DNA of 64,000 bases from Candidatus Omnitrophota bacterium (GTDB lineage: Bacteria; Omnitrophota; Gorgyraeia; Zapsychrales; Fredricksoniimonadaceae). Below the pieces are notes generated by a model, which was not told the DNA's origin, ran no database searches, and saw nothing but the letters and a program-made list of their open reading frames with translations. Made by a program: the position numbers and the translations under genes. Below are positions 1,421-28,277 of this stretch, one piece after another. The stretch covers positions 71,890-135,889 of the forward strand of contig CAJARJ010000005.1 in NCBI GenBank assembly GCA_903944345.1. Reading direction: 5' to 3'. The stretch's first letter is position 1. Each line of letters opens with the position of its first letter.

Positions 1421-3997
1421 ATGAAAAGAATAATTGCAAGCCTATTGATCGTAACTTCTCTGCTGAATCCCCGCTCTGCGGCTTTTGGATCAGAGATTTT
1501 ATTGCCTGTCCCTGGCCAAATCACACAATTAAGCGCAGCCTTTGATCCTTTGCTTATTAAGGGGATTCAGGTTGACCCCCAGGATCCTTTCCGTTTTGAT
1601 TTTCTGATCGATCCGGGCAAGCAGCCTCTTATTGCCTATACCGTTAAAGCCGATATCGAAAGAATGGTCAGATACTTCTTTGCCAGTCTGACCATAGCTG
1701 ATAAGGATCTGTGGGTTAACCTCAGCCCGTTTGAAAAAGAACGTATCGTGTCCGATCCTCTGGAGCGAACTGTCATGGGACAGGATCTTCTGGCTCAGGA
1801 TTATATGCTTAAACAGATCACCTCTTCCTTGCTTTATCCCGAGAGCGATACAGGAAAAGAATTCTGGAAAAATGTCTACAGGCTGGCACAAGAAAAGTAC
1901 GGAACAACCGATGTGCCAATGGACACGTTCAACAAAGTCTGGATCATTCCGGACAAAGCGGTAATTGAAGTCAATGGCAATGTGGCCCTGATCGTCCAAA
2001 GCCATCTGAAGATTATGATGGAAACGGATTATCTGGCTTTGAAAGAAACTTCGAAAAAAGATATCCCTGACACCTCATCTCCCGATGCCACAGGGATCAG
2101 CCGCGAAATTACACGCAGAATCATTCTTCCTCTGCTGGAAAAAGAAATCAACGAAGGCAAGAACTTTGCCCGTTTACGCCAGATCTACCGGGCCATGATT
2201 ATGGCAACCTGGTTTAAACGCACCCTGCGCCAAAGCCTGCTGGGCAGAGAATACGCCGGTCAGAACAAACTGGTAGGAATAGAAAGCCTCGAAAAGAATG
2301 TTGCCGAAACCATATGGGAACGGTATGTCCAGTCTTTCAGAATGGGCGCATTTAATATGATCAAAGAAGAGTACGACCTTTATTCCGGAGAAATGATCCC
2401 CCGCAAATATTTCTCCGGCGGTTATCAGTATGATGCGTCCATGGTCGAAATTCTGACCGTACCTGCGCAGAACATCCTCCAGGCCCTTTCAACCCGCAGA
2501 TGGATCGCCGCACGGTTTGACGCCAGACCCGTGGGTAAACCTCAATCTATGGCCGAATATTTTCAATATGGTCGCTACAGCCGCCCATCCTCGAGTGGAA
2601 TGATCAGAAAAGTGGCCGGAGTTGCGGCATTGCTGGTCGCAGGCAGCCTCTGGCTTAATCCTCCTGTATGGAAGATAATTCAGTCCGAACAGGAAAGTAA
2701 TGCGTATACTCCGGTGTCTATATTCGACAAGCTTGACTTTACCAACAGTCGAACCTACACACATTACGGGATTCCATTTAAAGGGTTTAAACAGGATCCG
2801 GTCGATCTGGCATATCTTTTGCCGACGAAAGCATACAATTACGGGATCAAGGGGTTTTACTATCTTCTGCCTGAACAAGAGCAGGTTATCAAGAATGAAC
2901 TTGGCCCGTTTCACTTTATGGCGGGTGATCTTAATCTGCCTTTGTTACGTGCCTTTATCAAGGGCGAAAGGACAAGTGATATCTTTTTGCGTGAAAAGTT
3001 AGCGGAGGCTTCCGAGCAACCTGAAAGTTTATCCGAACAAGAATTCTACGCAATTTTCAATGATGTTCTAAAGATTCGCAATCTGTACTTTCTCCTCTCA
3101 GAATTTATTGATGAGAATTTTTTAGACGAAAACATTCGGCGATTAGTTGAACGAGCTTCAGCGGGCGAAAACCTTCTTAATGCTGTGGAGATTGAACGTC
3201 TGAACAGGGCCGTCCTGGAAGCGGCTTATCCTCAGGGAATAAGAAAAGTCCGCAATAGAGAACTGGGCGGAGTCTATTATGATAACCGGGTTGCCATCAC
3301 CTCGGTCAGCCCCAGAACTTTGACCCACGAAATTTTTCATCACTACTGGCAGAATTTCCTGACAGACGAAAAAAGAGAACGTTTTTCTTCCTTTTACCAG
3401 CGCCACCGGGACGTTTTCCGGGATATTCGCGACTCTCCAAACGAGGCATCGTACGCATACCATATCAATTCTCCCGAGGAAGGATTCACCGAGCTGGCCG
3501 CCACCTATGTGTCAAACCCGGTGCTGTTTACAGACTTTGCCCGACGCCATAAAGACGTCGGTGCGTGGGAGATCCTTGCGATGGTGGTCGGAGGTTTCTC
3601 TGATTATGACGACAAGACGCAGTCTGTCAATCTGAGGATTTATCGTAGTACCCACGGACAGAGGGCAGCAACATCCGGTAAGATCGAACCTGTCAATGTC
3701 AAGTTTCCTGCAAACAAGTTCAGCCTGGATAATGTATTGCGAAGCATGGAACAAATCAATTCGCCGGAATTTGACGCTCAATTCGATCAGCAACTATCCG
3801 CCCAACCAAAAAAAGATGAAACAAAAGGTGGTATTGACCTTGATTCCAGTCTTCTGGATATTGATGAGCTGGGGGAACAGATATCTTTCAGCGCCGCTGA
3901 CAGCCGCAACGTTGAACTGGATGGTATCCGCCCGGTCATTATCGGTGTCCGCTATCTGCAGGGCTTCAGAGCTATGACCGAATTCTTCCGGCACTAG
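1421..3997 (+). CDS. Secreted hypothetical protein, long paralogue of 30484..31893, with an HExxH motif in its unique C-terminal half
   Basis: Signal peptide MKRIIASLLIVTSLLNPRSAA. About 430 aa at the N-terminus are clearly homologous to the ORF at 30484 (FDPLLIKGIQVDP.., WVNLSPFEKERI, LLAQDYMLKQITSSLL, ..RQIYRAMIMATWFKRTLRQSLLG). The C-terminal roughly 430 aa are unique and contain LTHEIFHHYW. I could not assign a family. Confidence 0.7.
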   Translation: MKRIIASLLIVTSLLNPRSAAFGSEILLPVPGQITQLSAAFDPLLIKGIQVDPQDPFRFDFLIDPGKQPLIAYTVKADIERMVRYFFASLTIADKDLWVNLSPFEKERIVSDPLERTVMGQDLLAQDYMLKQITSSLLYPESDTGKEFWKNVYRLAQEKYGTTDVPMDTFNKVWIIPDKAVIEVNGNVALIVQSHLKIMMETDYLALKETSKKDIPDTSSPDATGISREITRRIILPLLEKEINEGKNFARLRQIYRAMIMATWFKRTLRQSLLGREYAGQNKLVGIESLEKNVAETIWERYVQSFRMGAFNMIKEEYDLYSGEMIPRKYFSGGYQYDASMVEILTVPAQNILQALSTRRWIAARFDARPVGKPQSMAEYFQYGRYSRPSSSGMIRKVAGVAALLVAGSLWLNPPVWKIIQSEQESNAYTPVSIFDKLDFTNSRTYTHYGIPFKGFKQDPVDLAYLLPTKAYNYGIKGFYYLLPEQEQVIKNELGPFHFMAGDLNLPLLRAFIKGERTSDIFLREKLAEASEQPESLSEQEFYAIFNDVLKIRNLYFLLSEFIDENFLDENIRRLVERASAGENLLNAVEIERLNRAVLEAAYPQGIRKVRNRELGGVYYDNRVAITSVSPRTLTHEIFHHYWQNFLTDEKRERFSSFYQRHRDVFRDIRDSPNEASYAYHINSPEEGFTELAATYVSNPVLFTDFARRHKDVGAWEILAMVVGGFSDYDDKTQSVNLRIYRSTHGQRAATSGKIEPVNVKFPANKFSLDNVLRSMEQINSPEFDAQFDQQLSAQPKKDETKGGIDLDSSLLDIDELGEQISFSAADSRNVELDGIRPVIIGVRYLQGFRAMTEFFRH

Positions 3998-5130: not shown

Positions 5131-6296
5131 TCCAGCATCCTCTTGAACTCATTGCGATCCTGGCCATTATTGAACTGGCCATTCTCTGGAGCGCCAATCT
5201 CCCGGTTCTTTCCGGATTCTTTAATATTGTTTCGCCTATTTTCTTTATTTATTTTCTTCCCATGCTGGCATCAAGCCTCGGACTTATCGACCCGCAGTCT
5301 CCGGTTCTGAATCTCGTCACAACACATCTATTACCGCCCGCCTTGTTCCTGTTGCTGGTGACTGTGGACATCCGGGCTATCTTCCGTCTGGGTCCGCAGG
5401 CTCTTGGCATTTTCTTTATAGGCAGCGCTGGTGTTCTGGCCGGGACTGTGTTGGCTTTTCTTGCTTTCAAACCGGTCATCGGAGCACATTATTGGGGAGG
5501 ATTTGCGGCATTATCTGCCTCTTGGACAGGCGGCAGTGCCAACATGATCGCTGTCAAGGAAGCCTTGTCAGTTCCCGACCAGATTTTTTCTCCCATGGTT
5601 GTCGTTGATACCATCATCCCTTACCTCTGGATGGGAATACTCATCGCCGCAGCGCGTCTGCAGCCCGTATTCAACCGCTGGAATTGTCCCGATACCGCTA
5701 TCCTCACAGCCTTGCGCCGCAAAACCTCATCAGTCTCGAATGAAAAGCCGCAGTGGACTTTTGCAGGGACTCTTTTGGTCATTGTCTGTGCTTTTCTTGC
5801 CAGCGAATTGACCATTTATGCGTCCGCATTCTTACCCGTGATAAAAAATGTCCTTTCCAGATCCGCCTGGAGTGTTATCCTGATTACCGTAACAGCGCTT
5901 GGACTGTCGCTGACTCCGGTCAGACGGTTGCACAGATACGGGGCAGGCCAGATTGGTTCCTGGATGCTGTATTTTGTCCTTGCCGGTATTGGCGCCAAAG
6001 CAACCTTGACCGATTTCAAGTCATCGATAGTCCTTCTGGCGGCCGGGGGGATTATAATCCTGACCCATCTGATTTTTTTGCTGACCGGAGCAAGGCTGTT
6101 ACGTCTTCCTTTATCCCTGGTGGCCGCAGCCAGCCAGGCCAATATAGGAGGCGTTGCCTCTGCACCGGTCGTAGCTGCCGTGTTTGATCCGTCTCTGGCC
6201 TCTGTTGGCTTGCTGATGGCGATTACAGGAAATATCCTGGGCACTTATCTGGGGGGACTATGCGCTTTCTTCTGCCATTCTTTGTCTTTACTATAA
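5127..6296 (+). CDS. Multi-pass membrane protein (DUF819/YjcL-like)
   Basis: 389 aa and highly hydrophobic with many predicted transmembrane helices. Its ATG overlaps the epimerase stop (ATGA), so it is translationally coupled inside the murein-peptide cluster. Confidence 0.6.
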   Translation: MIQHPLELIAILAIIELAILWSANLPVLSGFFNIVSPIFFIYFLPMLASSLGLIDPQSPVLNLVTTHLLPPALFLLLVTVDIRAIFRLGPQALGIFFIGSAGVLAGTVLAFLAFKPVIGAHYWGGFAALSASWTGGSANMIAVKEALSVPDQIFSPMVVVDTIIPYLWMGILIAAARLQPVFNRWNCPDTAILTALRRKTSSVSNEKPQWTFAGTLLVIVCAFLASELTIYASAFLPVIKNVLSRSAWSVILITVTALGLSLTPVRRLHRYGAGQIGSWMLYFVLAGIGAKATLTDFKSSIVLLAAGGIIILTHLIFLLTGARLLRLPLSLVAAASQANIGGVASAPVVAAVFDPSLASVGLLMAITGNILGTYLGGLCAFFCHSLSLL

Positions 6297-7609
6297 TATT
6301 AATTTCATTTGCGGCGGCATCCGGGGAAAATCTTCATTTAGCCGCTCCGCAGATCCTCTCCGGGGTCACCGGCGACATGACCACGCCTGGATACTGGATC
6401 GCCAAGCATCCGGCTCCCGACGCCTTGATAATGAACGAACGCCAGATTGCTGCTTTTAACCAGAATTCAATCAAACAAGGCCTGATCGAAGATTTCCGCG
6501 AGCCTCCCGAAATCATGCCGGGCAACAAGATTTCTGCTTTATTGCAGGCAATTGGCGATGACTTCAAAAAGCATACCTATTACAACAGTAAGAGCGAAAC
6601 GGTCGATCCTGCTTTTATTACCGGATTCGACCGGGAATCGGCCGCAATAAGCGAAAAGGTTGCCGTCCGTTACGGATATATTGTGCGTAACACTGACCAG
6701 CGCCTTTTGCCGACGGCAGACGCACTTTATCTGCAACCCGGCGATTTCGACTTCGACCAGAACCAGAACAGCCGTCTTGCAATTGGTGAGCCTGTTCTGG
6801 TTCTGGCCCGAAGCCGCGATCATGACTGGCTCTTTGTCAAAGGACGCATTTCGCAAGGCTGGGTCAGGACTGATGCGGTAGCCACCATGTCCAGGGATTT
6901 TTTTCTTTCCCGCGCAAATACCAAACGCACACTGGTGGTTCTTTCTGCCCGGGCGGATCTTTTTGGAGACCGAAAACTGACACAACATTTAACGTCCGTT
7001 CGCATGGGGAGTCTGCTTGCGTTCAAGCAGGTTCATCCAGATGCCTGGGAGGTCGAGATTCCGACACGTAATACTGACGGAACAGTGGCCTTTTCGCCGG
7101 CATTCCTGGCCAAAACTGATGCTAATACCGGATTTCTCCCGTTTACCCCGCGCACTATCTTCCGGCAAGCCTTCCGCCTGCTGGATGCGCCTTATGGCTG
7201 GGGAGACGCCAATGAAGCGCAAGACTGTTCCCGATTCATCCAGATGGTCTATGCTTGTGTAGGTATTACACTGCCAAGGAATTCTTCTGAACAAGGCAAA
7301 ACCGCAAATGCTATCCCGGGCTTCACCCAGGATACCCCCGACAATACCAAACAGGCACTGATCCTTGAGCATGCCACAGGCGGGGCAACCCTGTTTCTTC
7401 TGCCGGGACATATCATGCTCTATCTGGGCTACAGCGCTGGGCAGCCCTATGTGATCCATGCAACCTGGGCGTACCGGGACAAAACAGAAACTGGCGAAGA
7501 CCGGGTCAGGCTGGTCGCGAAAGTTACAATAAGTGATCTGAGCCTGGGAACCGGATCGGCAAAAGGATCATTACTCCAACGACTCTCATCTGCCAGAAAC
7601 TTGAAATAA
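6260..7609 (+). CDS. Secreted gamma-D-glutamyl-L-diamino-acid endopeptidase-like protein (SH3b domains plus NlpC/P60, YkfC-like)
   Basis: Signal peptide MRFLLPFFVFTIILISFAAASG. The C-terminal NlpC/P60 domain has the catalytic Cys motif DCSRFIQMVYACVGITLPRNSSEQ and His (GHIMLYLGY). The middle region is SH3-like. Confidence 0.8.
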   Translation: MRFLLPFFVFTIILISFAAASGENLHLAAPQILSGVTGDMTTPGYWIAKHPAPDALIMNERQIAAFNQNSIKQGLIEDFREPPEIMPGNKISALLQAIGDDFKKHTYYNSKSETVDPAFITGFDRESAAISEKVAVRYGYIVRNTDQRLLPTADALYLQPGDFDFDQNQNSRLAIGEPVLVLARSRDHDWLFVKGRISQGWVRTDAVATMSRDFFLSRANTKRTLVVLSARADLFGDRKLTQHLTSVRMGSLLAFKQVHPDAWEVEIPTRNTDGTVAFSPAFLAKTDANTGFLPFTPRTIFRQAFRLLDAPYGWGDANEAQDCSRFIQMVYACVGITLPRNSSEQGKTANAIPGFTQDTPDNTKQALILEHATGGATLFLLPGHIMLYLGYSAGQPYVIHATWAYRDKTETGEDRVRLVAKVTISDLSLGTGSAKGSLLQRLSSARNLK

Positions 7610-7636
7610 AAAGGTCCTCAAAAAATCATGCCCCGG

Positions 7637-7666
7637 CTTGACAGTTTTTACTGAACGGGTGTATAT
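7637..7666 (+). promoter_or_regulatory. Putative sigma70 promoter of the rseC-like-rnf operon
   Basis: TTGACA (7637-7642), an 18-bp spacer, then TATATT (7661-7666), about 45 bp upstream of the rseC-like start. Confidence 0.4.
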
Positions 7667-7710
7667 TCGTTCTTCGGTTATTGTCAATTGTCCGGTGGGG
7701 GTGGCAAACT

Positions 7711-8121
7711 ATGCCTGATATTGATCACCCCGGAACTGTCTTGGATATTAAAAACGGGGAAGTAACGGTCAAGATTACCCGTGCATCACCGTGTGGAAAC
7801 TGTCAGGCTCGTATGGCTTGTGGCAGTGAAGCCGAAGACAGTATCCTGAAAATCCGTGGTTTTTATCCGGAACTAAAGCCCGGAGACACTGTCAGTGTCC
7901 ATATTTGTCGCTCAACCGGCATGAAGGCAGTTCTTATCGGTTATATTCTGCCTTTTTTAGTCTTTTTAAGTAGCTTCTTTTTATTTCAGTTTCTTTTCAA
8001 GCACGAAGATCTTGCGGGACTATTCGGGCTTCTTATGCTGGGACCATATTTTCTGATTATCCGGCTTCTGCGCAAACAGTTAGCCGACAAGTTTTCACTA
8101 ACTTTAACGAGAACACCATGA
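7711..8121 (+). CDS. RseC/MucC family protein (SoxR-reducing system component-like)
   Basis: Conserved Cys cluster (CGNCQARMACG) followed by two transmembrane helices, immediately upstream of rnfB and overlapping it. The track start 7681 is a TTG. I prefer the ATG at 7711 (MPDIDHPG..) with a G-rich Shine-Dalgarno. Confidence 0.6.
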   Translation: MPDIDHPGTVLDIKNGEVTVKITRASPCGNCQARMACGSEAEDSILKIRGFYPELKPGDTVSVHICRSTGMKAVLIGYILPFLVFLSSFFLFQFLFKHEDLAGLFGLLMLGPYFLIIRLLRKQLADKFSLTLTRTP

Positions 8122-8978
8122 ACCCCGTTATTTTATATACACTTCTGACCGCAGGACTGATAGCCGCTTTTGCTGCTATAGTGCTTTTTTTTATTGCCCG
8201 CAAATTTCATGTTCAGGAAGATCCCCGTATTGATGAGGTTACCAACGCTTTACCGGGAGTTAATTGCGGGGGATGCGGCCAGCCCGGCTGTCGCGCCTTT
8301 GCCGAATTATGTGTCAAGTCGCCCGATATGGAAGGTTTGTTCTGCCCGGTCGGTGGTAACGATACCATGGCTAATGTTGCTAATCTCCTGGGACGAACTG
8401 TCCAGGCCAAGGCTCCGGTAGTTGCTGTGCTGCGCTGTAACGGAAGCCTGACCAACCGGCCCAAACACAGCCGTTATGACGGCCCGCAGTCCTGCGCTGT
8501 TATTCACGCTCTTAGTCGTGGAGAAACCGGCTGTCAATATGGCTGCTTATGGTGCGGAGACTGTGTTAAAGCCTGCAAATTTGGTGCAATGACGCTGGAT
8601 AAAGAATCCGGACTTCCAATAATTGACGAGGCCAGGTGTGTGGCTTGCGGAGCCTGTGTAACGGCGTGTCCACGCCAGCTCATCCAGATGAGGCTCAAAG
8701 GCCCCAAAAATCGCAGGGTCTTCGTTTCCTGTGTGAATAAAGAAAAAGGCAATGTGGCCATGAAAGCCTGTCGCGCAGCCTGTATCGGCTGTTCCAAATG
8801 CCTGAAAGAATGTCCTTTCGAAGCCATCACCCTACAGGATTCACTGGCTTATATCGACGATCAGAAATGTAAAATATGCCGTAAATGTGTATTGGTCTGC
8901 CCTACAGGGGCAATACATGAAGTCAATTTCCCTCCGAAACCAAAGACAGCAGAGACCTCAACAACCACAGGTACATAA
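8118..8978 (+). CDS. rnfB: Rnf electron transport complex subunit B (polyferredoxin)
   Basis: N-terminal transmembrane helix, NCGGCGQPGCRAF, then multiple CxxCxxCxxxCP 4Fe-4S motifs. Confidence 0.9.
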   Translation: MNPVILYTLLTAGLIAAFAAIVLFFIARKFHVQEDPRIDEVTNALPGVNCGGCGQPGCRAFAELCVKSPDMEGLFCPVGGNDTMANVANLLGRTVQAKAPVVAVLRCNGSLTNRPKHSRYDGPQSCAVIHALSRGETGCQYGCLWCGDCVKACKFGAMTLDKESGLPIIDEARCVACGACVTACPRQLIQMRLKGPKNRRVFVSCVNKEKGNVAMKACRAACIGCSKCLKECPFEAITLQDSLAYIDDQKCKICRKCVLVCPTGAIHEVNFPPKPKTAETSTTTGT

Positions 8979-8986
8979 ATATTTTT

Positions 8987-10354
8987 ATGGGTTCAACTCC
9001 GGCTAACATCAAAGCTTTGTCGTTTCCACAGGGAGGCATTCATCCGCCCGACTCGAAACTGTCTAGCGAGCGGGCTGTACGCCCCATAACACTTCCTGCC
9101 AGCATCGTTTTGCCGCTGGGACAACATATCGGGGCGCCTTCAAAGCCATTGGTCAAACCCGGTGATAAAGTCAAAACCGGTCAACTGTTGGCCGAGGCTG
9201 CAGGTTTTGTGTCTGCCAACCTGCATTCCTCCGTGTCAGGGACTGTCAGCAAAATTGACGGAGTTATCGATGTGTCCGGATATAAAAAACCGGCCATCTT
9301 TATAGATGTCCAAGGCGACGATTGGCTGGACTCGATTGACCGGACACCCGGAATCCTTGCGGATATTTCCATATCTTCCAAAGACATCCTCCAGCGCATT
9401 ACCGATGCCGGACTAGTCGGTCTGGGCGGGGCGACTTTCCCAACTCATGTCAAACTCGCAGTCCCGCCGGGCAAAAAACCTCCGCAGATTTTGCTGATCA
9501 ATGGTGTCGAATGCGAACCCTATCTGACTTCCGATCACCGTTTGATGCTTGAGCACCCGCAGGAAATCATGATCGGCATCCGGCTGCTTATGAAGGCCAC
9601 CGGAGTTTCACGCGCCATTCTTGGTATCGAAACCAATAAAATGGATGCTATCAAACTTCTAACTCGCTACTGCGATCCGAAAGAAGGCATTCAGGTCCAG
9701 GCACTGAAAATGCAATATCCCCAGGGAGGGGAGCGTCAGCTGGTCAAGGCGCTTATCGGAAAGGAAATTCCGCCACCCCCCAGAGGTCTGCCCATCGACG
9801 TCGGAGCTGTAGTCATAAATGTTGCGACTGTTTTTGCTGTTTACGAGGCCGTACAAAAACGCAAACCTTTGATTGAACGGATCGTAACCGTGACCGGAAA
9901 ATCGCTCAAAGACCCGGGGAACTTCAGAACACGCTTTGGAGTGACTTTTGATCATCTGGCCGCACTGGCCGGGGGAGTACCGGACGACACCGGGAAAGTT
10001 ACTGCCGGCGGCCCGATGATGGGCCGGGCCTTTGTTGACCTTAGCGCACCTGTCACCAAAGGGACTTCAGGCATAGTCTTTTATCCTAAAGATCAATCCC
10101 TTCGTGAAACTCTGACCAATTGTATCCGTTGCGGAAAATGTGTCGAAGTCTGCCCTCTGGGACTCGAACCCTATCTGGTCGCAGCTCTGGCCGAGCAGGG
10201 GAATTGGACTCGCGCCGAGGAGGAAAAACTGACCAACTGCTGTGAGTGCAGTTGCTGTGCCTATATCTGTCCGGCCAACAGGCCGCTGGTCGATTTTATT
10301 AAACTCGGGAAAAGCCGTATCCTGGATATAATGAAGAAAAGACAAAAAGTATGA
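8987..10354 (+). CDS. rnfC: Rnf complex subunit C
   Basis: 455 aa. NADH/FMN-binding region GLGGATFPTHVKL and C-terminal 2x[4Fe-4S] motifs (CIRCGKCVEVCP, CCECSCCAYICP). Confidence 0.9.
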   Translation: MGSTPANIKALSFPQGGIHPPDSKLSSERAVRPITLPASIVLPLGQHIGAPSKPLVKPGDKVKTGQLLAEAAGFVSANLHSSVSGTVSKIDGVIDVSGYKKPAIFIDVQGDDWLDSIDRTPGILADISISSKDILQRITDAGLVGLGGATFPTHVKLAVPPGKKPPQILLINGVECEPYLTSDHRLMLEHPQEIMIGIRLLMKATGVSRAILGIETNKMDAIKLLTRYCDPKEGIQVQALKMQYPQGGERQLVKALIGKEIPPPPRGLPIDVGAVVINVATVFAVYEAVQKRKPLIERIVTVTGKSLKDPGNFRTRFGVTFDHLAALAGGVPDDTGKVTAGGPMMGRAFVDLSAPVTKGTSGIVFYPKDQSLRETLTNCIRCGKCVEVCPLGLEPYLVAALAEQGNWTRAEEEKLTNCCECSCCAYICPANRPLVDFIKLGKSRILDIMKKRQKV

Positions 10355-11349
10355 CAACAGCCCGCTTACTGGTCGTTTCACAGCCTCCGCACATTCCAGG
10401 CCCTTTCTCAACCCGCCGGATTATGCTGGATGTCCTGATTGCCTTGACGCCCGCGTTTCTTGCCGCGCTTTATTATTTTGGTGTCGGAGCTTTTCTGGTG
10501 ACTGCAACAGCCGTGGTCTGTTGTCTGGCTACCGAATACCTGATCCAGAAGTTTCTATTGCGCAAGGAACCGACCATTAATGACCTGTCCGCAGTTGTCA
10601 CCGGCGTACTGCTGGCCATGAATCTGCCTTCCAATATTCCTCTGGGCATGGTCGCAGCAGGAAGCATTTTTGCTATCGGAATTGCCAAAATGTGTTACGG
10701 CGGACTTGGACATAATCCTTTTAATCCGGCATTAATGGGCCGGGTTTTTCTGCTTATGTCTTTTCCGGTGGCCATGACCTCTTGGCCCAAACCGCTCATC
10801 AACCGGTTTTCAGTCGACGCAGTCACAGGGCCAACTCCGCTGGCTATTATTAAAGAAGGCCTGCATGCCGGACAGCCTTTAGGCGAGCTTATGCCAAAAA
10901 TTCCCGGTTATCTGGATCTCTTTCTGGGCAATCGCGGCGGATGTCTTGGGGAAGTGTCTATACTCGCCATTCTTCTGGGGCTGGCTTATCTTTTGTATCG
11001 TCAGGTCATCACCTGGCATATTCCTGTTATCGCAGCTCTTTCCGCTTTCCTGCTGTCGGGTTTGTTCTGGATTATGACCCCGGGCTCAACTCCGGATCCG
11101 TTCTTTCATTTGCTCACCGGAGGACTCATTTTCGGAATCGTTTTTATGGCCACCGACTATACAACTTCGCCCATGACCGTCAAAGGCATGTGTTTTTACG
11201 CTGCCGCGATCGGCATCCTGACGATCCTGATCCGATCTTTTGGCTCATATCCTGAAGGGATGTCTTTTGCCATACTGATCATGAATGCTTTTGTTCCCCT
11301 AATTAATAAATTATGCAAGCCTTACCGTTTTGGAGAAGGGAAAATCTGA
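10351..11349 (+). CDS. rnfD: Rnf complex subunit D
   Basis: 332-aa polytopic membrane protein of the NqrB/RnfD family. Start overlaps the rnfC stop. Confidence 0.9.
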   Translation: MTTARLLVVSQPPHIPGPFSTRRIMLDVLIALTPAFLAALYYFGVGAFLVTATAVVCCLATEYLIQKFLLRKEPTINDLSAVVTGVLLAMNLPSNIPLGMVAAGSIFAIGIAKMCYGGLGHNPFNPALMGRVFLLMSFPVAMTSWPKPLINRFSVDAVTGPTPLAIIKEGLHAGQPLGELMPKIPGYLDLFLGNRGGCLGEVSILAILLGLAYLLYRQVITWHIPVIAALSAFLLSGLFWIMTPGSTPDPFFHLLTGGLIFGIVFMATDYTTSPMTVKGMCFYAAAIGILTILIRSFGSYPEGMSFAILIMNAFVPLINKLCKPYRFGEGKI

Positions 11350-21213: not shown

Positions 21214-21485
21214 GGCAAGGATTATATACCATCGGTGTGTTCTGCCTATATGAATTTATCTATTTTTCGCGTTCCCGGCGGGGGGAGGGGGGAAAAAGAG
21301 GGTTGCATAGCTTGTTGGTTGTGGTAGATTGGGGGAAGGTTTGATGATAAGGATGCAAGAGGCCTTTTTTGACATTTATTGACATTTGAATTCAGGATTG
21401 CTTTGGTTAACTAGGTTTGAGAAATTATGTTGCGGGGTCTCATTTCCTTTTAGAATCATCGCGTTTTATTACGCAGGGAAAAACT

Positions 21486-23969
21486 ATGAGTAAAAAAATA
21501 AGTCGAGCAATGATTCCCAACTTGCTCTCTGCGATTGCTTGGGCAGTAGGAGTTGCATCTTTCATTTACCCGCTCTGGTTTAAACCAATGTTAGTTCTTA
21601 CTGATCAGTTTCTATATGATAGGTTTGACTTTGTATTCGGAAGTTTTGCTGTGATGTGTTGCGGATGGGTTGTTGTGTTTAACGCCTTGCCATTGGCCTG
21701 GTTTGAATATAAGCAGACTTTAACCAATGATGTGAAGGGTATTGGTTATGGTGGATGGATTGTTATAACTACATGTGTCGCCCTGTTTGCCACAGTCTCG
21801 GATATTTCTCAAGGGCACTTTTCGGCCTATTTCTTACTTTGGATGATCTTAAATATTTTTGCAGGCATGGCTTGCTGGATTGCTGTTATTGCCTTTCTTC
21901 ATAAGAACAACAGTAGGACTGAGAACAAGAAAGAAAAGAAGGATTTGCTGGAGCGAGGGGTTATTTTAACAAGCCTCAAGCAGTGCATTGATAGTGCGCC
22001 AGTTGATGAAGGATCTTTTGTGATTGGTCTGTACGGCGCTTGGGGTTCAGGAAAAAGTTTTGTTACCGATCTATTAAAGCACCAATATGAAAAACAAGAA
22101 GACGTGATTTTCCTACAGTTTACTGCTAGTGCATTTAGTAGCGAGAGCGCAATAATTCGCGGACTCTATGAAACAATTGAGAATGGATTTCCGTCGAACT
22201 CTGCTTTTCTTAAAAGAGCTCTGTGTAATTATGGTCGAAGCTTGGCTGAGTGCTTTAAGGCGCCGAGTATTGGCAGCTTCTTCGGCAGTGCCGGTTCTTT
22301 TGATCAACATAAGAATGAATTGGCAAAGGAGTTGCGGTTGGCTGATGATAAAAGAATTGTTGTCGTGGTTGATGATATTGATCGTCTTGAAGAATCTGAA
22401 GCACGAGCAGTATTGCGAGCTGTCAGGAATAATTTAGATCTTCCTAGGATTGTTTTTATTGTTAGCTGTGACCCTGACAAGGTTTTAAGTTTTTATCAAG
22501 GGAATGCCGGGCAGTTGGAAAAGATTTTAAATTGTTCGCTTCATTTGCCGATGCCAACAGTCGCTCAAATTCTTGATTATCTTCGCGACCCAGTTGTGAA
22601 AGTAGTCACCGCAGCAACGGGATCGGAAGATATAGCTAAGGGTACTATGGATTTATTCTCGGATGTGCTTGCAAAGGGAGCTTTTGAACGAGTTTTAACA
22701 CTGCGATGGGCAAAGTTGTTGGTAAATCAGCTTGAAACGTATCCGAAAGATATTATGAGAGAGGTTCGGCCGCTCGACATCATTTTATTAGAAGCGCTGA
22801 GATTGTTTTCTCCTGTGGCCTGGTCTGATATAAGCATGAACGAATCCCTCTACCTTGGAACAAGGCAGGTTTTTAAATTTGGTGTGGAGGCAAAGGAAAG
22901 AAGAAAGGAGGAATTGGCAGAGCTTAAGCAACATCTTACAAATTTGGTTGGAGGCCACCACATGAATGCATGCTTTGCTCTCATGGAAGAGCTTTTTCCT
23001 GAGGTTTTTGCTGCATTAAAATATGATCCGATTAGTAGGTTTGATGAAGAGAGGGCACGTGTTGAAAAACGAGTTGCTAACTCTGAGTGTTTTGAAAAAT
23101 ATTTCTTTAAGGCCGTTTTGCCGAACATGGTGAGCGACGGCCATGTAGAGAAGCTGTATAAAAGATGGAATAGCCTTGGGGTAGATGAAGCTGTAGAGGA
23201 TATGGTAACTATTTTTAAAGAGAGTCCATTAAACAAGGAATTGTTTTTTCAGGCTCTTTTGAGAAATTGTAGCATTGCATCGTCCTCGACAGCTGAAAGC
23301 ATGGTTTTGGCGTTATCTCGTTTAGGCTTAAGATGGCATGATGGATCTAGGGAGCAGTTTGGGCAGGCAAAGAATTTGTTTTTTGATCTTCTGGAGAAGA
23401 GGTGCTTGGATTCGGATGTGGCCAAGATTTATATGCGTTGCCTTCGGGAAGGAACTTCCTTGGACTTTACTGCTGCATGTATTGCAGAGCTCGCTATTCA
23501 GCCAAGGTATAAAAAGACAGCGGGTTTGGTAGATTTCAATGAAGCTAAGAAGTTTGGTGTCGATTTACTTACAAGAATCTTTGTTAAGGAAGGTGTCGAT
23601 GTCTTTGTGCAATACCCCGATAGTGCAGTAAGTCTTTTGCGATATTGGGCTAATGAGTTTTATTCTGTGGCAGGTGGCAAGAAGGCAGAGGTGAGCAATT
23701 ATATTTGGAGTAGAATTAACAGTTGTCCTCAGAATTTGTTAATGATTGCTAATTATCTTAGCGGCCCCGGAGATCATGGTTATTATATTTCGAATATGGC
23801 GATTGAATTTCTTGATATAGATGTTGCCGTGGTGAATATCGAAGGCTTAATTACCCAAGGAGTTTATTTGGGAAAAGAGTTGGAGAAGATTTCTTCGTTT
23901 AGAGATGCTTGTAAGCAATATCTTGAGAAAAAAGATATTGTGAGCCCTAAAAATAATAATGAGAAATGA
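21486..23969 (+). CDS. Membrane-anchored KAP-family P-loop NTPase
   Basis: Four predicted N-terminal transmembrane helices, then Walker A GLYGAWGSGKSF (KAP signature GxWGxGKS) and Walker B RIVVVVDDIDRL (the hhhhDDhDR KAP hallmark), then about 500 aa of alpha-helical C-terminal region. The track start 21417 is a TTG. I prefer the ATG at 21486 with an AGGGA ribosome-binding site. GC is visibly lower than in flanking genes. Confidence 0.75.
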   Translation: MSKKISRAMIPNLLSAIAWAVGVASFIYPLWFKPMLVLTDQFLYDRFDFVFGSFAVMCCGWVVVFNALPLAWFEYKQTLTNDVKGIGYGGWIVITTCVALFATVSDISQGHFSAYFLLWMILNIFAGMACWIAVIAFLHKNNSRTENKKEKKDLLERGVILTSLKQCIDSAPVDEGSFVIGLYGAWGSGKSFVTDLLKHQYEKQEDVIFLQFTASAFSSESAIIRGLYETIENGFPSNSAFLKRALCNYGRSLAECFKAPSIGSFFGSAGSFDQHKNELAKELRLADDKRIVVVVDDIDRLEESEARAVLRAVRNNLDLPRIVFIVSCDPDKVLSFYQGNAGQLEKILNCSLHLPMPTVAQILDYLRDPVVKVVTAATGSEDIAKGTMDLFSDVLAKGAFERVLTLRWAKLLVNQLETYPKDIMREVRPLDIILLEALRLFSPVAWSDISMNESLYLGTRQVFKFGVEAKERRKEELAELKQHLTNLVGGHHMNACFALMEELFPEVFAALKYDPISRFDEERARVEKRVANSECFEKYFFKAVLPNMVSDGHVEKLYKRWNSLGVDEAVEDMVTIFKESPLNKELFFQALLRNCSIASSSTAESMVLALSRLGLRWHDGSREQFGQAKNLFFDLLEKRCLDSDVAKIYMRCLREGTSLDFTAACIAELAIQPRYKKTAGLVDFNEAKKFGVDLLTRIFVKEGVDVFVQYPDSAVSLLRYWANEFYSVAGGKKAEVSNYIWSRINSCPQNLLMIANYLSGPGDHGYYISNMAIEFLDIDVAVVNIEGLITQGVYLGKELEKISSFRDACKQYLEKKDIVSPKNNNEK

Positions 23970-24054
23970 CTTTTTGTGTATATTTTGGGGAAACACTAAA
24001 CACTCGGAGTTCTTTGATATTTGATATAATTTTAGCTATGCTCCTCATTTGAAA

Positions 24055-24924
24055 ATGAATACACTCCAAACAAATTCAGTTTTACCTTTGGTTTCACAGC
24101 TTCGTTCTTCCTACCCAGCACTCCAGCAAGTTTTACAGGCTCCTTTTCAACTTAATCTTATAATTGACACTAATGTAATTCTCGGAGACATGCTTTGGAT
24201 GTTGAAGAAAAGGAGAAATGCAAATGCCAAAACAGAAATTCTTGAGTTATTGCAAAACAGAACTCTCTTTGCTTGTGCTCCTACGCTTCTAAAGAAAGAA
24301 ATAAAAAGACACATCCCGGTAATAGCCAAAAAAGAGGGCTTGGATGAGGGGGCTTTCTTATGCCTCTGGAAAGAGTATGAGAGATACATAGAATTTCTTC
24401 CGTATAAGACCTCCCAAAAATTAAGAAAGCAGTGTGAAAGAGATCCTAACGATGCCCCATTCTTAGCATTACAAATGTCACATCGATATCCAATCCATTC
24501 GAAAGATAAAGATATGGTCGCGATGGGTGGAAAAGTAATAAATGCACGATTGATTACGGATTTGAAGGAATATTCTAGAAACGCGGAGATATGTTATTCC
24601 TTTGAAATTTCTGGTATTGGTATCGGGATTTTAACGATATCGACAGCGCGGGCAATCTTTGTCTTGCTCTCGAAGATTCCCAAACAAATTTATGCTGGCG
24701 CAGCCATAGGTTTATTTGTTTTGCTTCTTCATCCGAAAAGTAGAGAACAAATTCTGAAATGTATTGAAAGTAATATGAAAGGAATATCCGCTGCTCTAGA
24801 AGAAGCCGCCAATATGATTTCTCCGAGTCTGGAAAAGTATAATCAAAGTAGAAATATCGTAGAAGATAAGAAAGAGCTTATAATAGGCCAGCTCGCTGGA
24901 CAAGGCCTGCAGTTTCGTCGGTAA
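24055..24924 (+). CDS. PIN-domain protein with two C-terminal transmembrane helices (putative membrane-anchored RNase effector)
   Basis: PIN acidic motifs are present: LIIDTNVILGD (Asp1), a mid Glu, RDPNDAPFLALQ (the D-x-N-D motif) and SKDKDM. Two hydrophobic helices follow (ISGIGIGILTISTARAIFVLL, AGAAIGLFVLLL). It lies 79 bp downstream of the KAP NTPase on the same strand. The track start 24049 is a TTG, and the ATG is at 24055. Confidence 0.6.
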   Translation: MNTLQTNSVLPLVSQLRSSYPALQQVLQAPFQLNLIIDTNVILGDMLWMLKKRRNANAKTEILELLQNRTLFACAPTLLKKEIKRHIPVIAKKEGLDEGAFLCLWKEYERYIEFLPYKTSQKLRKQCERDPNDAPFLALQMSHRYPIHSKDKDMVAMGGKVINARLITDLKEYSRNAEICYSFEISGIGIGILTISTARAIFVLLSKIPKQIYAGAAIGLFVLLLHPKSREQILKCIESNMKGISAALEEAANMISPSLEKYNQSRNIVEDKKELIIGQLAGQGLQFRR

Positions 24925-25023
24925 ACTCAAGAAATAGGGTCTTTCTGTGCCATTCCAAGAACGATCTTAAGAGAGCTACTGTAGCTTTCTTTCGGTTAGA
25001 ACAGAAATAAGTCTAAATAACTG

Positions 25024-25058
25024 GTGACACACAGAGTTGTTTTATAACATTCTTTCGA
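25024..25058. repeat. Degenerate partial left end of the MITE-like element
   Basis: gtgacacacaGAGttgttttataacat matches the consensus left end gtgacacacacaattgtttcttaacat. Confidence 0.45.
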
Positions 25059-25093
25059 ACCAAGCGGAATGTCAGGGGACTGTATGATAATTC

Positions 25094-25200
25094 GTGACAC
25101 ACACAATTGTTTCTTAACATCTATTGACGTTTACGCCAAACAAATTCTCTGTTGGCATATACGCAAGTCATTACCAGTCTCAAAAACTATATGTGTCCTT
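25094..25200. repeat. MITE-like element copy A (about 107 bp, right terminal inverted repeat degenerate)
   Basis: Left end gtgacacacacaattgtttcttaacatctattgacgtttacgcc.. The right end ..ctcaaaaactatatgtgtcct aligns with ctcaaaattctgtgtgtcac of copies B and C. It lies in the brnT upstream region. Confidence 0.55.
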
Positions 25201-25233
25201 GACATTGTGTAACTTGGTATATACACTTGAATC

Positions 25234-25521
25234 ATGGTGATAATTGATCGACCAATTGAGTTCCAATGGGATAAGGGCAACAAGGGAAAAAATCTTGTTA
25301 AGCATAAAGTAGCCGATCAGGAGTGTGAAGAAGTTTTTTTTGATCAGAAAAAAAAGATATTCAAAGATGCTTTACATTCCGACAATGAAGAACGATTGGT
25401 CTTATTAGGACAAACCAAGAATGGACGCGTCCTTTTTATTGTTTTTACAGTTCGTTCCGGGAGAATTCGGGTTATTTCAGCCCGGGATTTAAACCGAAAA
25501 GAGAGACATTTATATGAATAA
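25234..25521 (+). CDS. brnT: BrnT-family type II toxin (DUF497 ribonuclease toxin)
   Basis: 95 aa with the signature FQWDKGNKGKNLVKHKV (the FEWDxxKxxxNxxKHG motif). Confidence 0.75.
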   Translation: MVIIDRPIEFQWDKGNKGKNLVKHKVADQECEEVFFDQKKKIFKDALHSDNEERLVLLGQTKNGRVLFIVFTVRSGRIRVISARDLNRKERHLYE

Positions 25522-25780
25522 AAAAACTGATTTGCCAAAATTCAAGAATGAAGATGCGGAAAGAGATTACTGGGCAAAGTTTGATCTCTCCGATCATTTT
25601 AGCTCAAAGGATTTTTTGAGCGTTTCTTTGCCAAATCTAAAGCCGACATCGTCTGCTATTTCTGTACGCGTTCCCAATTATTTACTCGTTCGGTTGAAAG
25701 AAAGAGCCCATGAACTCAATATTCCTTACCAAACTTTAATGAAGCAATATATTGCGAACGGAATATTTGCGCATCATTAG
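25514..25780 (+). CDS. brnA: BrnA-family antitoxin (CopG/RHH-like)
   Basis: 88 aa, overlapping the brnT stop by 8 nt, with the toxin-then-antitoxin order typical of BrnTA. The C-terminal RHH-like region is ..VRVPNYLLVRLKERAHELNIPYQTLMKQYI. Confidence 0.7.
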   Translation: MNKKTDLPKFKNEDAERDYWAKFDLSDHFSSKDFLSVSLPNLKPTSSAISVRVPNYLLVRLKERAHELNIPYQTLMKQYIANGIFAHH

Positions 25781-25795
25781 TGTAGGAATTAAAAT

Positions 25796-25905
25796 AAACA
25801 GTGACACACACAATTGTTTCTTAACATCTATTAACATTTACGCCAGACGACTTTTCTGTTGGTATGTACGTAAGCATCAACCAATCTCAAAATTCTGTGT
25901 GTCAC
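25796..25905. repeat. MITE-like element copy B (about 110 bp) with imperfect terminal inverted repeats
   Basis: aaacaGTGACACACAcAATTgtttcttaacatctattaacatttacgccagacgacttttctgttggtatgtacgtaagcatcaaccaatctcaaAATTcTGTGTGTCACgg. It starts 16 bp after the brnA stop. Confidence 0.65.
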
Positions 25906-26037
25906 GGATTTGCAACACGAGGCGTTGCAGAATGTGAACCCGAATGATGTCTACGCTGGAAAGATGAAAAAGCTATAATCTTAACCAATGAAACAATAAC
26001 TGGCTGAAGATATACAAATTAATGGGGAAATATCAGA

Positions 26038-27294: not shown

Positions 27295-27298
27295 GGAT

Positions 27299-27408
27299 AA
27301 ACAGTGACACACACAATTGTTTCTTAACATCTATTAACATTTACGTCAGACGACTTTTCTTTTGGCATGTACGTAAGTATCAACCAATCTCAAAATTCTG
27401 TGTGTCAC
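27299..27408. repeat. MITE-like element copy C (about 110 bp)
   Basis: Near-identical to copy B with about 6 substitutions. It starts 5 bp after the antiporter stop and ends about 25 bp before the next gene. Confidence 0.65.
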
Positions 27409-27433
27409 GGATTGTTAAAACGAAGGAAATTTG

Positions 27434-28216: not shown

Positions 28217-28277
28217 AATAAACAGTGACCAATAAACAGTGACACACACAATTGTTTCTTAACATCCATTAACATTC
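28217..28277. repeat. Truncated MITE-like copy D (left end only) with a 14-bp tandem duplication
   Basis: aataaacagtgacc aataaacagtgacacacacaattgtttcttaacatccattaacatt, after which similarity to copies B and C ends. Confidence 0.5.

Follow-up and report, generated by a model that had tools for sequence, protein, structure and literature searches.

A gene for a membrane-anchored P-loop NTPase of the KAP family is followed closely, on the same strand of a Candidatus Omnitrophota genome, by a gene for a PIN-domain nuclease with a hydrophobic hairpin (hereafter PIN-2TM, for its two putative transmembrane segments). Both lie within the 64,000-nucleotide stretch of DNA analysed here (contig CAJARJ010000005.1, positions 71,890 to 135,889; the window), and their arrangement raises the question of whether they form a dedicated two-gene defence system, as a first-pass annotation proposed, or are independent genes brought together. 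We find that both proteins are of defence type, that the case for a dedicated pair holds only in part, and that their adjacency is not conserved. The reading we prefer, with a probability of roughly 0.55, is that two portable defence-type genes – a PifA/EF_KAP-like NTPase and an operon-riding PIN-2TM nuclease – have become juxtaposed in a small acquired island. The genes concerned, in window coordinates, are:

21486-23969, + strand: KAP-family P-loop NTPase gene, PifA-like, with an N-terminal membrane anchor (ATG 21486; 827 aa)
23970-24054, + strand: spacer from the KAP stop to the PIN ATG, 85 bp, with no terminator-like hairpin
24055-24924, + strand: PIN-2TM gene (289 aa), whose product joins a VapC-like PIN nuclease to a hydrophobic hairpin and ends in a long helix

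The first-pass annotation made conservation of the two genes as neighbours one of the points on which its two-gene system would turn, and that conservation is absent when looked for from either side. In an hmmsearch with a hidden Markov model built from 119 KAP relatives, a KAP gene is found in 0/43 other PIN-2TM loci, so that the window is the only one that has it, and a PIN gene is adjacent in 0/4 loci of KAP relatives (P0018, P0112 and P0083, which have N-terminal transmembrane helices, and P0005, the nearest relative). The KAPs in those four loci are solitary, and two of them adjoin other conflict genes, in one case AAA_21 and RloB and in the other an MqsA/SocA-type antitoxin. The KAP and PIN-2TM pair itself recurs only on contigs that are 99.99-100% identical to the window. 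Both genes are low in G+C (KAP 0.41, PIN-2TM 0.39, flanks 0.49-0.52), which argues for a foreign origin, and the locus is best explained as a small, horizontally acquired mini-island with three separately portable conflict modules: KAP, PIN-2TM, and an adjoining BrnT/BrnA pair.

The assignment of the first gene to the KAP family is well founded. Pfam KAP_NTPase (PF07693) matches residues 163-418 at E 1.3e-26 (94 bits, against a cutoff of 20), with an alignment spanning positions 7-288 of the 293 in the profile, and the Walker A and Walker B motifs, beginning at residues 184 and 292, both conform to the patterns of the family (GxxxxGK[ST] and hhhhDD(h)DR). The four N-terminal transmembrane helices described in the first-pass annotation are also present. 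The parts of the gene are:

21510-21899, + strand: four predicted transmembrane helices, residues ~9-138, N-terminal to the P-loop domain (Kyte-Doolittle scan)
22035-22058, + strand: Walker A, GAWGSGKS, residues 184-191 (motif search on the translation)
22359-22385, + strand: Walker B, VVVVDDIDR, residues 292-300 (motif search on the translation)
22740-23966, + strand: C-terminal helical region, residues ~419-827 (no Pfam match; weak similarity to PifA-like relatives)

The hydrophobic segments fall at residues ~9-31, 47-70, 86-107, and 114-138, and the Kyte-Doolittle scan finds none between Walker A and Walker B (residues 184-292). Insertion of two or four transmembrane helices in the NTPase domain is typical of many KAPs, though not universal, as Aravind et al. 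reportedly set out in 2004; in the window protein the transmembrane segments precede the domain instead. Public calls of this gene differ, giving either 819 or 827 aa.

That the KAP protein is of defence type, as the first-pass annotation supposed, is borne out by its best PADLOC match, to PifA (PDLC02361, E 8.2e-33), which comes in two stretches. The better one aligns residues 266-608 with positions 160-509 of the 720-position profile, and the C-terminal third of the profile (~210 positions) is unmatched. PifA of the F plasmid is the founding bacterial KAP NTPase and excludes phage T7, its hallmark being exclusion of T7-like phages triggered by gp1.2 or gp10; it was reportedly described by Schmitt et al. 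in 1991 as a single-protein, membrane-associated exclusion factor. The window KAP has in common with PifA the P-loop and part of the helical region that follows, and its residues 441-827 match the relatives P0024, P0005, and P0032 at E 1e-7 to 1e-9 (phmmer). It differs in being only 23-26% identical to PifA-like relatives, in the unmatched end of the profile, and in an extra four-helix transmembrane domain of ~140 aa, whereas the PifA-like relatives have no transmembrane segment and a P-loop that begins at residue 44-55. A tblastn search of plasmids did not reach the F-plasmid pifA. After PifA, the PADLOC matches are to QatA and PDC-S20, both weak and confined to the P-loop. Identity with QatA was considered and rejected, since the NCBIfam QatA model scores 43.5 bits against a cutoff of 600; the neighbours, too, are PIN-2TM and BrnT/BrnA rather than qatBCD. 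YobI-ATPase matches at E 0.42 only, and sequence searches of the PDB gave no match for either the KAP or the PIN-2TM protein.

The first-pass annotation called an N-terminal anchor unusual for a KAP, which is true in that it is a minority form but not in the sense that it is unique. Transmembrane helices N-terminal to the P-loop occur in 5/119 relatives (P0014, P0018, P0073, P0083, and P0112), and the window architecture is therefore a recurrent minority form, while a clear insert between Walker A and Walker B, taken as canonical, is found in only about five of the 119. The majority are PifA-like proteins of 710-740 aa. The nearest relative beyond the identical copies is 26% identical, and no homologue of the N-terminal four-helix region was found by phmmer among the 119 relatives, including the others with N-terminal helices.

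Single KAP NTPase genes with transmembrane helices protect Enterococcus faecalis against phages (PMC13552941; PLoS Biol 2026), and this defence requires Walker B and an uncharacterised C-terminal region, without an abortive-infection signature for EF_KAP (PMC13552941). The window KAP is like EF_KAP in being a single gene whose product combines a KAP P-loop with transmembrane helices and an extensive C-terminal region, and in having the Walker B motif that is essential in EF_KAP; it differs, going by the published description, in that EF_KAP has one N-terminal transmembrane helix and one inside the KAP domain, and the window KAP four N-terminal helices and no insert. Tmn (PMC13001434) is likewise a P-loop NTPase embedded in the membrane, where it acts without a partner; according to the same account its ATP turnover rises on sensing a phage protein and it co-occurs with Gabija. 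It belongs to another P-loop family than the window KAP, and its transmembrane helices follow Walker A. With single-gene KAPs and Tmn acting alone, stand-alone defence by a KAP protein is thus already known, and for single-gene KAPs it rests on experiment.

The four predicted N-terminal helices of the window KAP anchor it in the inner membrane. Its C-terminal region may sense a phage cue, and ATP binding or hydrolysis might switch it to a membrane-acting state modelled on PifA-dependent permeability lesions or on ion export of the Tmn type. The window KAP adds an N-terminally anchored form with four transmembrane helices to the single-protein defence NTPases, and is a natural construct for probing the role of the membrane part.

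The second gene encodes a protein matching PIN_2 (PF10130; E 2e-11, 44.6 bits against a cutoff of 22.4). Alignment with homologues places its start at ATG 24055 and not at TTG 24049, which makes the distance from the KAP gene 85 bp rather than the 79 bp given in the first-pass annotation. Some NCBI/ENA calls begin at an internal methionine and give 244 aa, which deletes D38, the first catalytic aspartate, together with conserved N-terminal helices; the JGI call has 289 aa from ATG 24055, as do the homologues. The principal parts (residues numbered from ATG 24055) are:

24160-24540, + strand: PIN catalytic core, residues 36-162, with invariant D38, D130, D133, and D151 and near-invariant N40, E64, and E82
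24607-24729, + strand: hydrophobic hairpin, residues ~185-205 and 212-225; P209, in its turn, and R230, just beyond, are near-invariant

The acidic PIN motifs were correctly recognised: D38, D130, D133, and D151 are invariant in 125 members of the family, and N40, E64, E82, W105, M157, Y173, R175, P209 (in the hairpin turn), and R230 are nearly so. Two C-terminal transmembrane helices had also been claimed; there are indeed two hydrophobic segments, but a helix of ~60 aa follows the hairpin, so that they do not lie at the very C-terminus. An AlphaFold2 model based on the 125-sequence alignment (predicted local distance difference test score, pLDDT, 95.6) has a PIN core followed by helices at 164-206, 210-225, and 227-282, and its closest structural matches are PIN toxins of the VapC type; the protein has a PIN fold, and its helical tail is covered by no solved structure. 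The domain match, the invariant residues, and the structural model together therefore indicate that PIN-2TM is a VapC-like nuclease with an intact active site, tethered by a conserved hairpin, and with no antitoxin gene at the locus. Upstream there is no VapB-type antitoxin: the preceding gene is the 827-aa KAP, and the 85-bp spacer has no open reading frame (ORF).

The PIN-2TM family is large. When 1.84 billion representatives were scanned in full with HMMER, with clustering at 50% identity, 758 clusters passed a threshold of E<=1e-3 and 189 one of E<=1e-30, which refutes the impression from a word-indexed search that there are only 3-5 relatives. Nearly all clusters are 285-380 aa long and aligned over the whole profile, and in 145/149 representatives the PIN core is followed by one or more hydrophobic segments, in most cases two, near residues 190-245. 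PIN_2 is matched by 92/125 members and PIN_3 by 58/125. We found no published description of this PIN family with its membrane hairpin, and PIN-2TM was found neither on plasmids (tblastn) nor in viral contigs (pattern scan). Matelska et al. 2017 (PMC5499597) describe PIN-like genes coupled to type I restriction-modification (R-M) operons without antitoxins, and class PIN_2 simply among the toxin-antitoxin toxins.

The company that PIN-2TM keeps elsewhere was examined at 44 non-redundant loci, whose neighbouring genes were called as ORFs, clustered, and annotated. It is nearly always a downstream or embedded gene of an operon, with a partner that varies. The upstream gene is co-oriented at 35/42 loci, with a gap of <=30 bp in 21, and overlaps of 4 bp, often on both sides of the PIN-2TM gene, imply frequent translational coupling. 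At 27 or more of the 44 loci, a recognised defence gene lies no further than three genes from PIN-2TM, a lower bound that accords with the defence-type nature proposed for it in the first-pass annotation; the caveat entered there, that the protein might be an ordinary housekeeping nuclease, does not apply. The arrangements are:

Type I R-M partner, 14/44 loci (~1/3)
hsdR-hsdS-PIN-hsdM: L025, L027, L028, L029, L030, and L019 (4-bp overlaps, e.g. in L028, L025, L027, and L019)
hsdM-hsdS-hsdR-PIN-GmrSD or hsdR-PIN-GmrSD: L018 and L023
Other type I R-M arrangements: L006, L043, L045, L047, and L052
GajA-like (AAA_15 and OLD TOPRIM) and GajB-like (UvrD) genes upstream of PIN-2TM: L031, L033, L035, L038, and L039
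Fusion of N6_N4 methylase and Mrr: L014, L021, and L040 (upstream of PIN-2TM in L014 and L021)
A 1421-aa TIR-CHAT-AAA_16-TPR (STAND-type) protein upstream of PIN-2TM: L032
DUF2971/PDC-S31 upstream of PIN-2TM: L001
An 813-aa HSDR_N-like and AAA protein upstream of PIN-2TM: L005
An nSTAND3-like NTPase and a 528-aa protein upstream of PIN-2TM: L004

Gabija-like pairs accompany PIN-2TM at six loci, the pair being downstream in L027, and GmrSD is a neighbour at three loci overall. The closest relatives of the window protein (43-51% identity) have as upstream partner DUF2971, an unrelated AAA NTPase, or an unknown protein. The arrangement embedded in type I R-M genes is absent from the window, where PIN-2TM is flanked by KAP and BrnT with no hsd genes.

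These neighbourhoods bear directly on the alternative that the two window genes form a two-component abortive-infection system, in which the membrane KAP senses infection and activates the adjacent membrane-tethered PIN protein as a killing effector. In its favour, KAP and PIN lie on one strand 85 bp apart with nothing resembling a terminator in the gap, PIN-2TM genes nearly always follow another gene within an operon, both window proteins have membrane segments, and a large P-loop NTPase lies one or two genes upstream of PIN-2TM not only in the window (KAP) but also in L005 (AAA), L004 (nSTAND3-like), and L032 (TIR-CHAT-STAND). The pairing with KAP is nonetheless unique to the window among the 44 loci, and the majority of partners are R-M, Gabija-like, or GmrSD genes rather than NTPase sensors. 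Homology among the three best-studied NTPase partners (the window KAP, the 813-aa protein of L005, and the 719-aa protein of L004) was sought and none was found beyond the P-loop, and a membrane anchor as a general trait of the partners was rejected, the others being essentially soluble unlike KAP; there is therefore no conserved interface. Moreover, the KAP relatives with N-terminal transmembrane helices are solitary, and the characterised KAP defence proteins act as single genes (PMC13552941). We consider a two-component system unlikely, and of the first-pass proposal retain the defence-type nature of both proteins and not their dedication to one another.

Several points weigh against reading the pair as an acquired juxtaposition. 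The 85-bp spacer has no terminator, so both genes could be one transcriptional and functional unit; to judge from this spacing, KAP and PIN-2TM are probably co-transcribed here, and the spacer has only a weak promoter-like match (24014-24042, 9/12 positions), with a promoter count not above the shuffled expectation. The NTPases upstream in four of the 44 contexts would also be expected from a modular sensor-effector design, and as both window proteins are membrane proteins they could meet in the bilayer. With PIN-2TM habitually co-oriented and closely spaced behind a defence gene, and an NTPase upstream in these four contexts, KAP and PIN may therefore cooperate functionally at this locus. The sample, too, is narrow: the 44 loci came via restricted peptide patterns (a 25-sequence subset) as against 758 clusters in total, the neighbour calls are simple ORF calls, and at about one-third of the loci no neighbour is annotated. 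PIN-2TM is matched by none of the PADLOC v2 models, and no experiment is on record for either protein.

At several loci a small ORF lies directly upstream of PIN-2TM: 66 aa in L006 (9804-10004), 94 aa in L014 (4160-4444) and L021 (1621-1905), 72 aa in L037, 84 aa in L022, and 125 aa in L035 (3611-3988) and L038 (5547-5924). The 94-aa ORF has a C-terminal hydrophobic segment and the 66-aa ORF overlaps the PIN start; the 94-, 125-, and 66-aa ORFs are conserved but match no family, and show no homology from one locus type to the next. In the PIN-2TM subfamilies concerned they could serve as adaptors or as antitoxin-like partners.

Such ORFs are among the grounds for regarding PIN-2TM as mainly a selfish toxin, of the addiction or stabilisation kind, that travels along with defence operons. 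Its role would be to keep the island stable and not to sense phage, and it would be neutralised in cis by its N-terminal or C-terminal helices or, at some loci, by the small upstream ORF. The VapC-like fold would suit such a role, as would the adjoining toxin-antitoxin pair in the window, the classing of PIN_2 with toxin-antitoxin toxins, and the coupling of antitoxin-less PINs to type I R-M (PMC5499597). Yet there is no small ORF between the window KAP and PIN genes, the small ORFs elsewhere are non-homologous across loci, and at most loci the gene that overlaps the PIN start by 4 bp encodes a large enzyme. Nor does the lack of an antitoxin set PIN-2TM apart from defence proteins. DS-3 of DefensePredictor, an antitoxin-less single PIN protein, has been validated for defence, with its catalytic residues required (PMC13092281); it is like PIN-2TM in being a PIN ribonuclease without a cognate antitoxin, and unlike it, by description, in having a split PIN domain and no membrane hairpin described in PMC13092281. 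PIN-2TM differs from VapC of the VapBC systems in having no VapB gene in the window, in adding a conserved N-terminal helix pair, the membrane hairpin, and the C-terminal helix of ~60 aa, and in its location inside defence operons instead of autoregulated cassettes of two genes. An addiction role alone seems to us decidedly improbable; if it held, PIN-2TM would show how defence islands get stabilised.

Roles outside conflict are the least plausible of all. KAP could in principle be an ATPase for membrane scaffolding or signalling, and PIN-2TM a nuclease that processes RNA in association with the membrane; KAP NTPases do have non-defence roles in eukaryotes (Kidins220/ARMS), which counts for this idea, as does the lack of a recorded phenotype for either protein. 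Against it stand the sporadic distribution (one relative locus in GTDB species representatives with the patterns used), the lack of any close KAP relative above 26% identity, the foreign, low-G+C composition of both genes, and the embedding of PIN-2TM in R-M and Gabija-like operons.

Within the preferred reading of two juxtaposed portable genes, KAP and PIN-2TM may act additively, neither requiring the other. PIN-2TM would be an Mg-dependent ribonuclease that its helical hairpin tethers to the membrane on the cytoplasmic side: a self-contained and presumably auto-inhibited second-line nuclease, transcribed with whichever first-line system lies upstream, that might cleave tRNA or rRNA, as VapC toxins do, once infection proceeds. 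The VapC-type PINs among the structural database entries cut tRNA or rRNA. The PIN-2TM family, promiscuously embedded in defence operons, is the most interesting lead to come from the locus. Should its members prove to be defence or back-up nucleases, the family would constitute a new and common accessory layer of R-M and Gabija-like loci, and a clean case of one effector common to unrelated systems.

A bolder proposal, possible but speculative, is that PIN-2TM proteins are a widespread and unnamed group of antitoxin-less, membrane-tethered VapC-like ribonucleases that serve as a universal, swappable second-line or guard effector. Their translation would be coupled to that of first-line defences as different as type I R-M, Gabija, GmrSD, methylase-Mrr, KAP, and STAND NTPases, and they would fire once these are overwhelmed or inhibited. 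A precedent is PrrC/RloC, a latent anticodon nuclease whose gene lies inside an hsd operon (the prr locus), and 14/44 PIN-2TM loci likewise lie within hsd operons. PrrC, however, is an ABC-ATPase with a nuclease domain and not a PIN protein, and the window has no adjoining hsd genes; PIN-2TM also occurs with Gabija-like, GmrSD, methylase-Mrr, and NTPase genes, so that a specific latency complex formed with enzymes like EcoprrI cannot be general. If this proposal is right, PIN-2TM would be a modular PIN-based analogue of PrrC and the window its first KAP-coupled example.

Some individual PIN-2TM loci have further features. In L004 (a Pseudoalteromonadaceae metagenome-assembled genome, CAZVDU010000080.1), positions 6165-10813 encode a 719-aa nSTAND3-like P-loop NTPase, which also weakly matches PDC-S73, a 528-aa protein with no family match, and PIN-2TM. 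The three genes are tightly coupled, with an overlap between the stop of the second and the start of PIN-2TM, and make up a candidate three-gene system, the one that comes closest to the sensor-effector idea. In L027 (1-8025), type I R-M genes with an embedded PIN-2TM are followed directly by a Gabija-like pair, and L018 (855-8795) and L023 (949-8800) combine type I R-M, PIN-2TM, and a GmrSD type IV enzyme with junctions of 3-4 bp. Two genes 3′ of a 51%-identical PIN-2TM, L003 has a gene (3004-3885) for a 293-aa protein with weak matches to HEPN RiboL-PSP and DUF3644 (E ~1e-3), which hints at another nuclease-type conflict gene.

The surroundings of the window pair are a mini-island rather than the defence island of the first-pass annotation, and include:

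25234-25780, + strand: BrnT toxin (25234-25521) and CopG-type BrnA antitoxin (25514-25780), an independent neighbouring module
25086-25213, + strand: repeat resembling a miniature inverted-repeat transposable element (MITE), with ends GTGACACACA...TGTGTGTCAC; further copies at 25793-25920, 27296-27423, and 28231-28276+, and a partial copy at 25016-25061

The adjoining BrnT/BrnA genes were rightly identified: they match PF04365 (E 4.5e-23) and PF12441 (E 9.4e-22), overlap by 8 bp, and are an ordinary toxin-antitoxin pair of the BrnTA type. It is here that G+C reaches its minimum, 0.365, and the KAP and PIN genes, although lower than their flanks, are not the lowest stretch of the window as had been stated. 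The MITE-like repeats reported next to the pair are also present. The repeat, 105-127 nt long and with inverted ends, occurs in four complete copies and a partial one, all within 25.0-28.3 kb and confined to intergenic spacers of the low-G+C island (0 by chance in 100 shuffles). Two direct copies bracket BrnT/BrnA, so the pair could move as a composite unit. The low-G+C island with BrnT/BrnA and repeats thus bears out part of the earlier description, but only 2/47 other ORFs of the window match PADLOC at E 1e-10, and 'defence island' therefore overstates the case. Those two ORFs, both outside 21-26 kb, match a PDC-S07 candidate (E 4.7e-31) and a type II nicking endonuclease model (E 8.1e-29). 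No Rfam RNA family was found across the window.

Every public contig with the locus matches the window at 99.99-100% identity wherever the two overlap, and neither an unoccupied site nor different cargo was found. Several contigs end within the KAP gene, which might have signified a hypervariable cassette; these ends are assembly breaks, since the same-sample contigs L061 and L055 abut at the same point, all are 99.99-100% identical to the window, and the breaks differ between samples. One 13-kb metagenome contig (L053) is identical to the window from 21166 rightwards, and on its left (L053 1-286) a TonB_C fragment replaces the glycosyltransferase; this divergence reflects either a rearranged strain or a chimeric assembly. 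At the left G+C boundary of the island, in the 270 bp upstream of KAP (21214-21485), there is a G-rich run, GGGGGGAGGGGGGAAAAAGAGGG, and TTGACATTT is directly duplicated.

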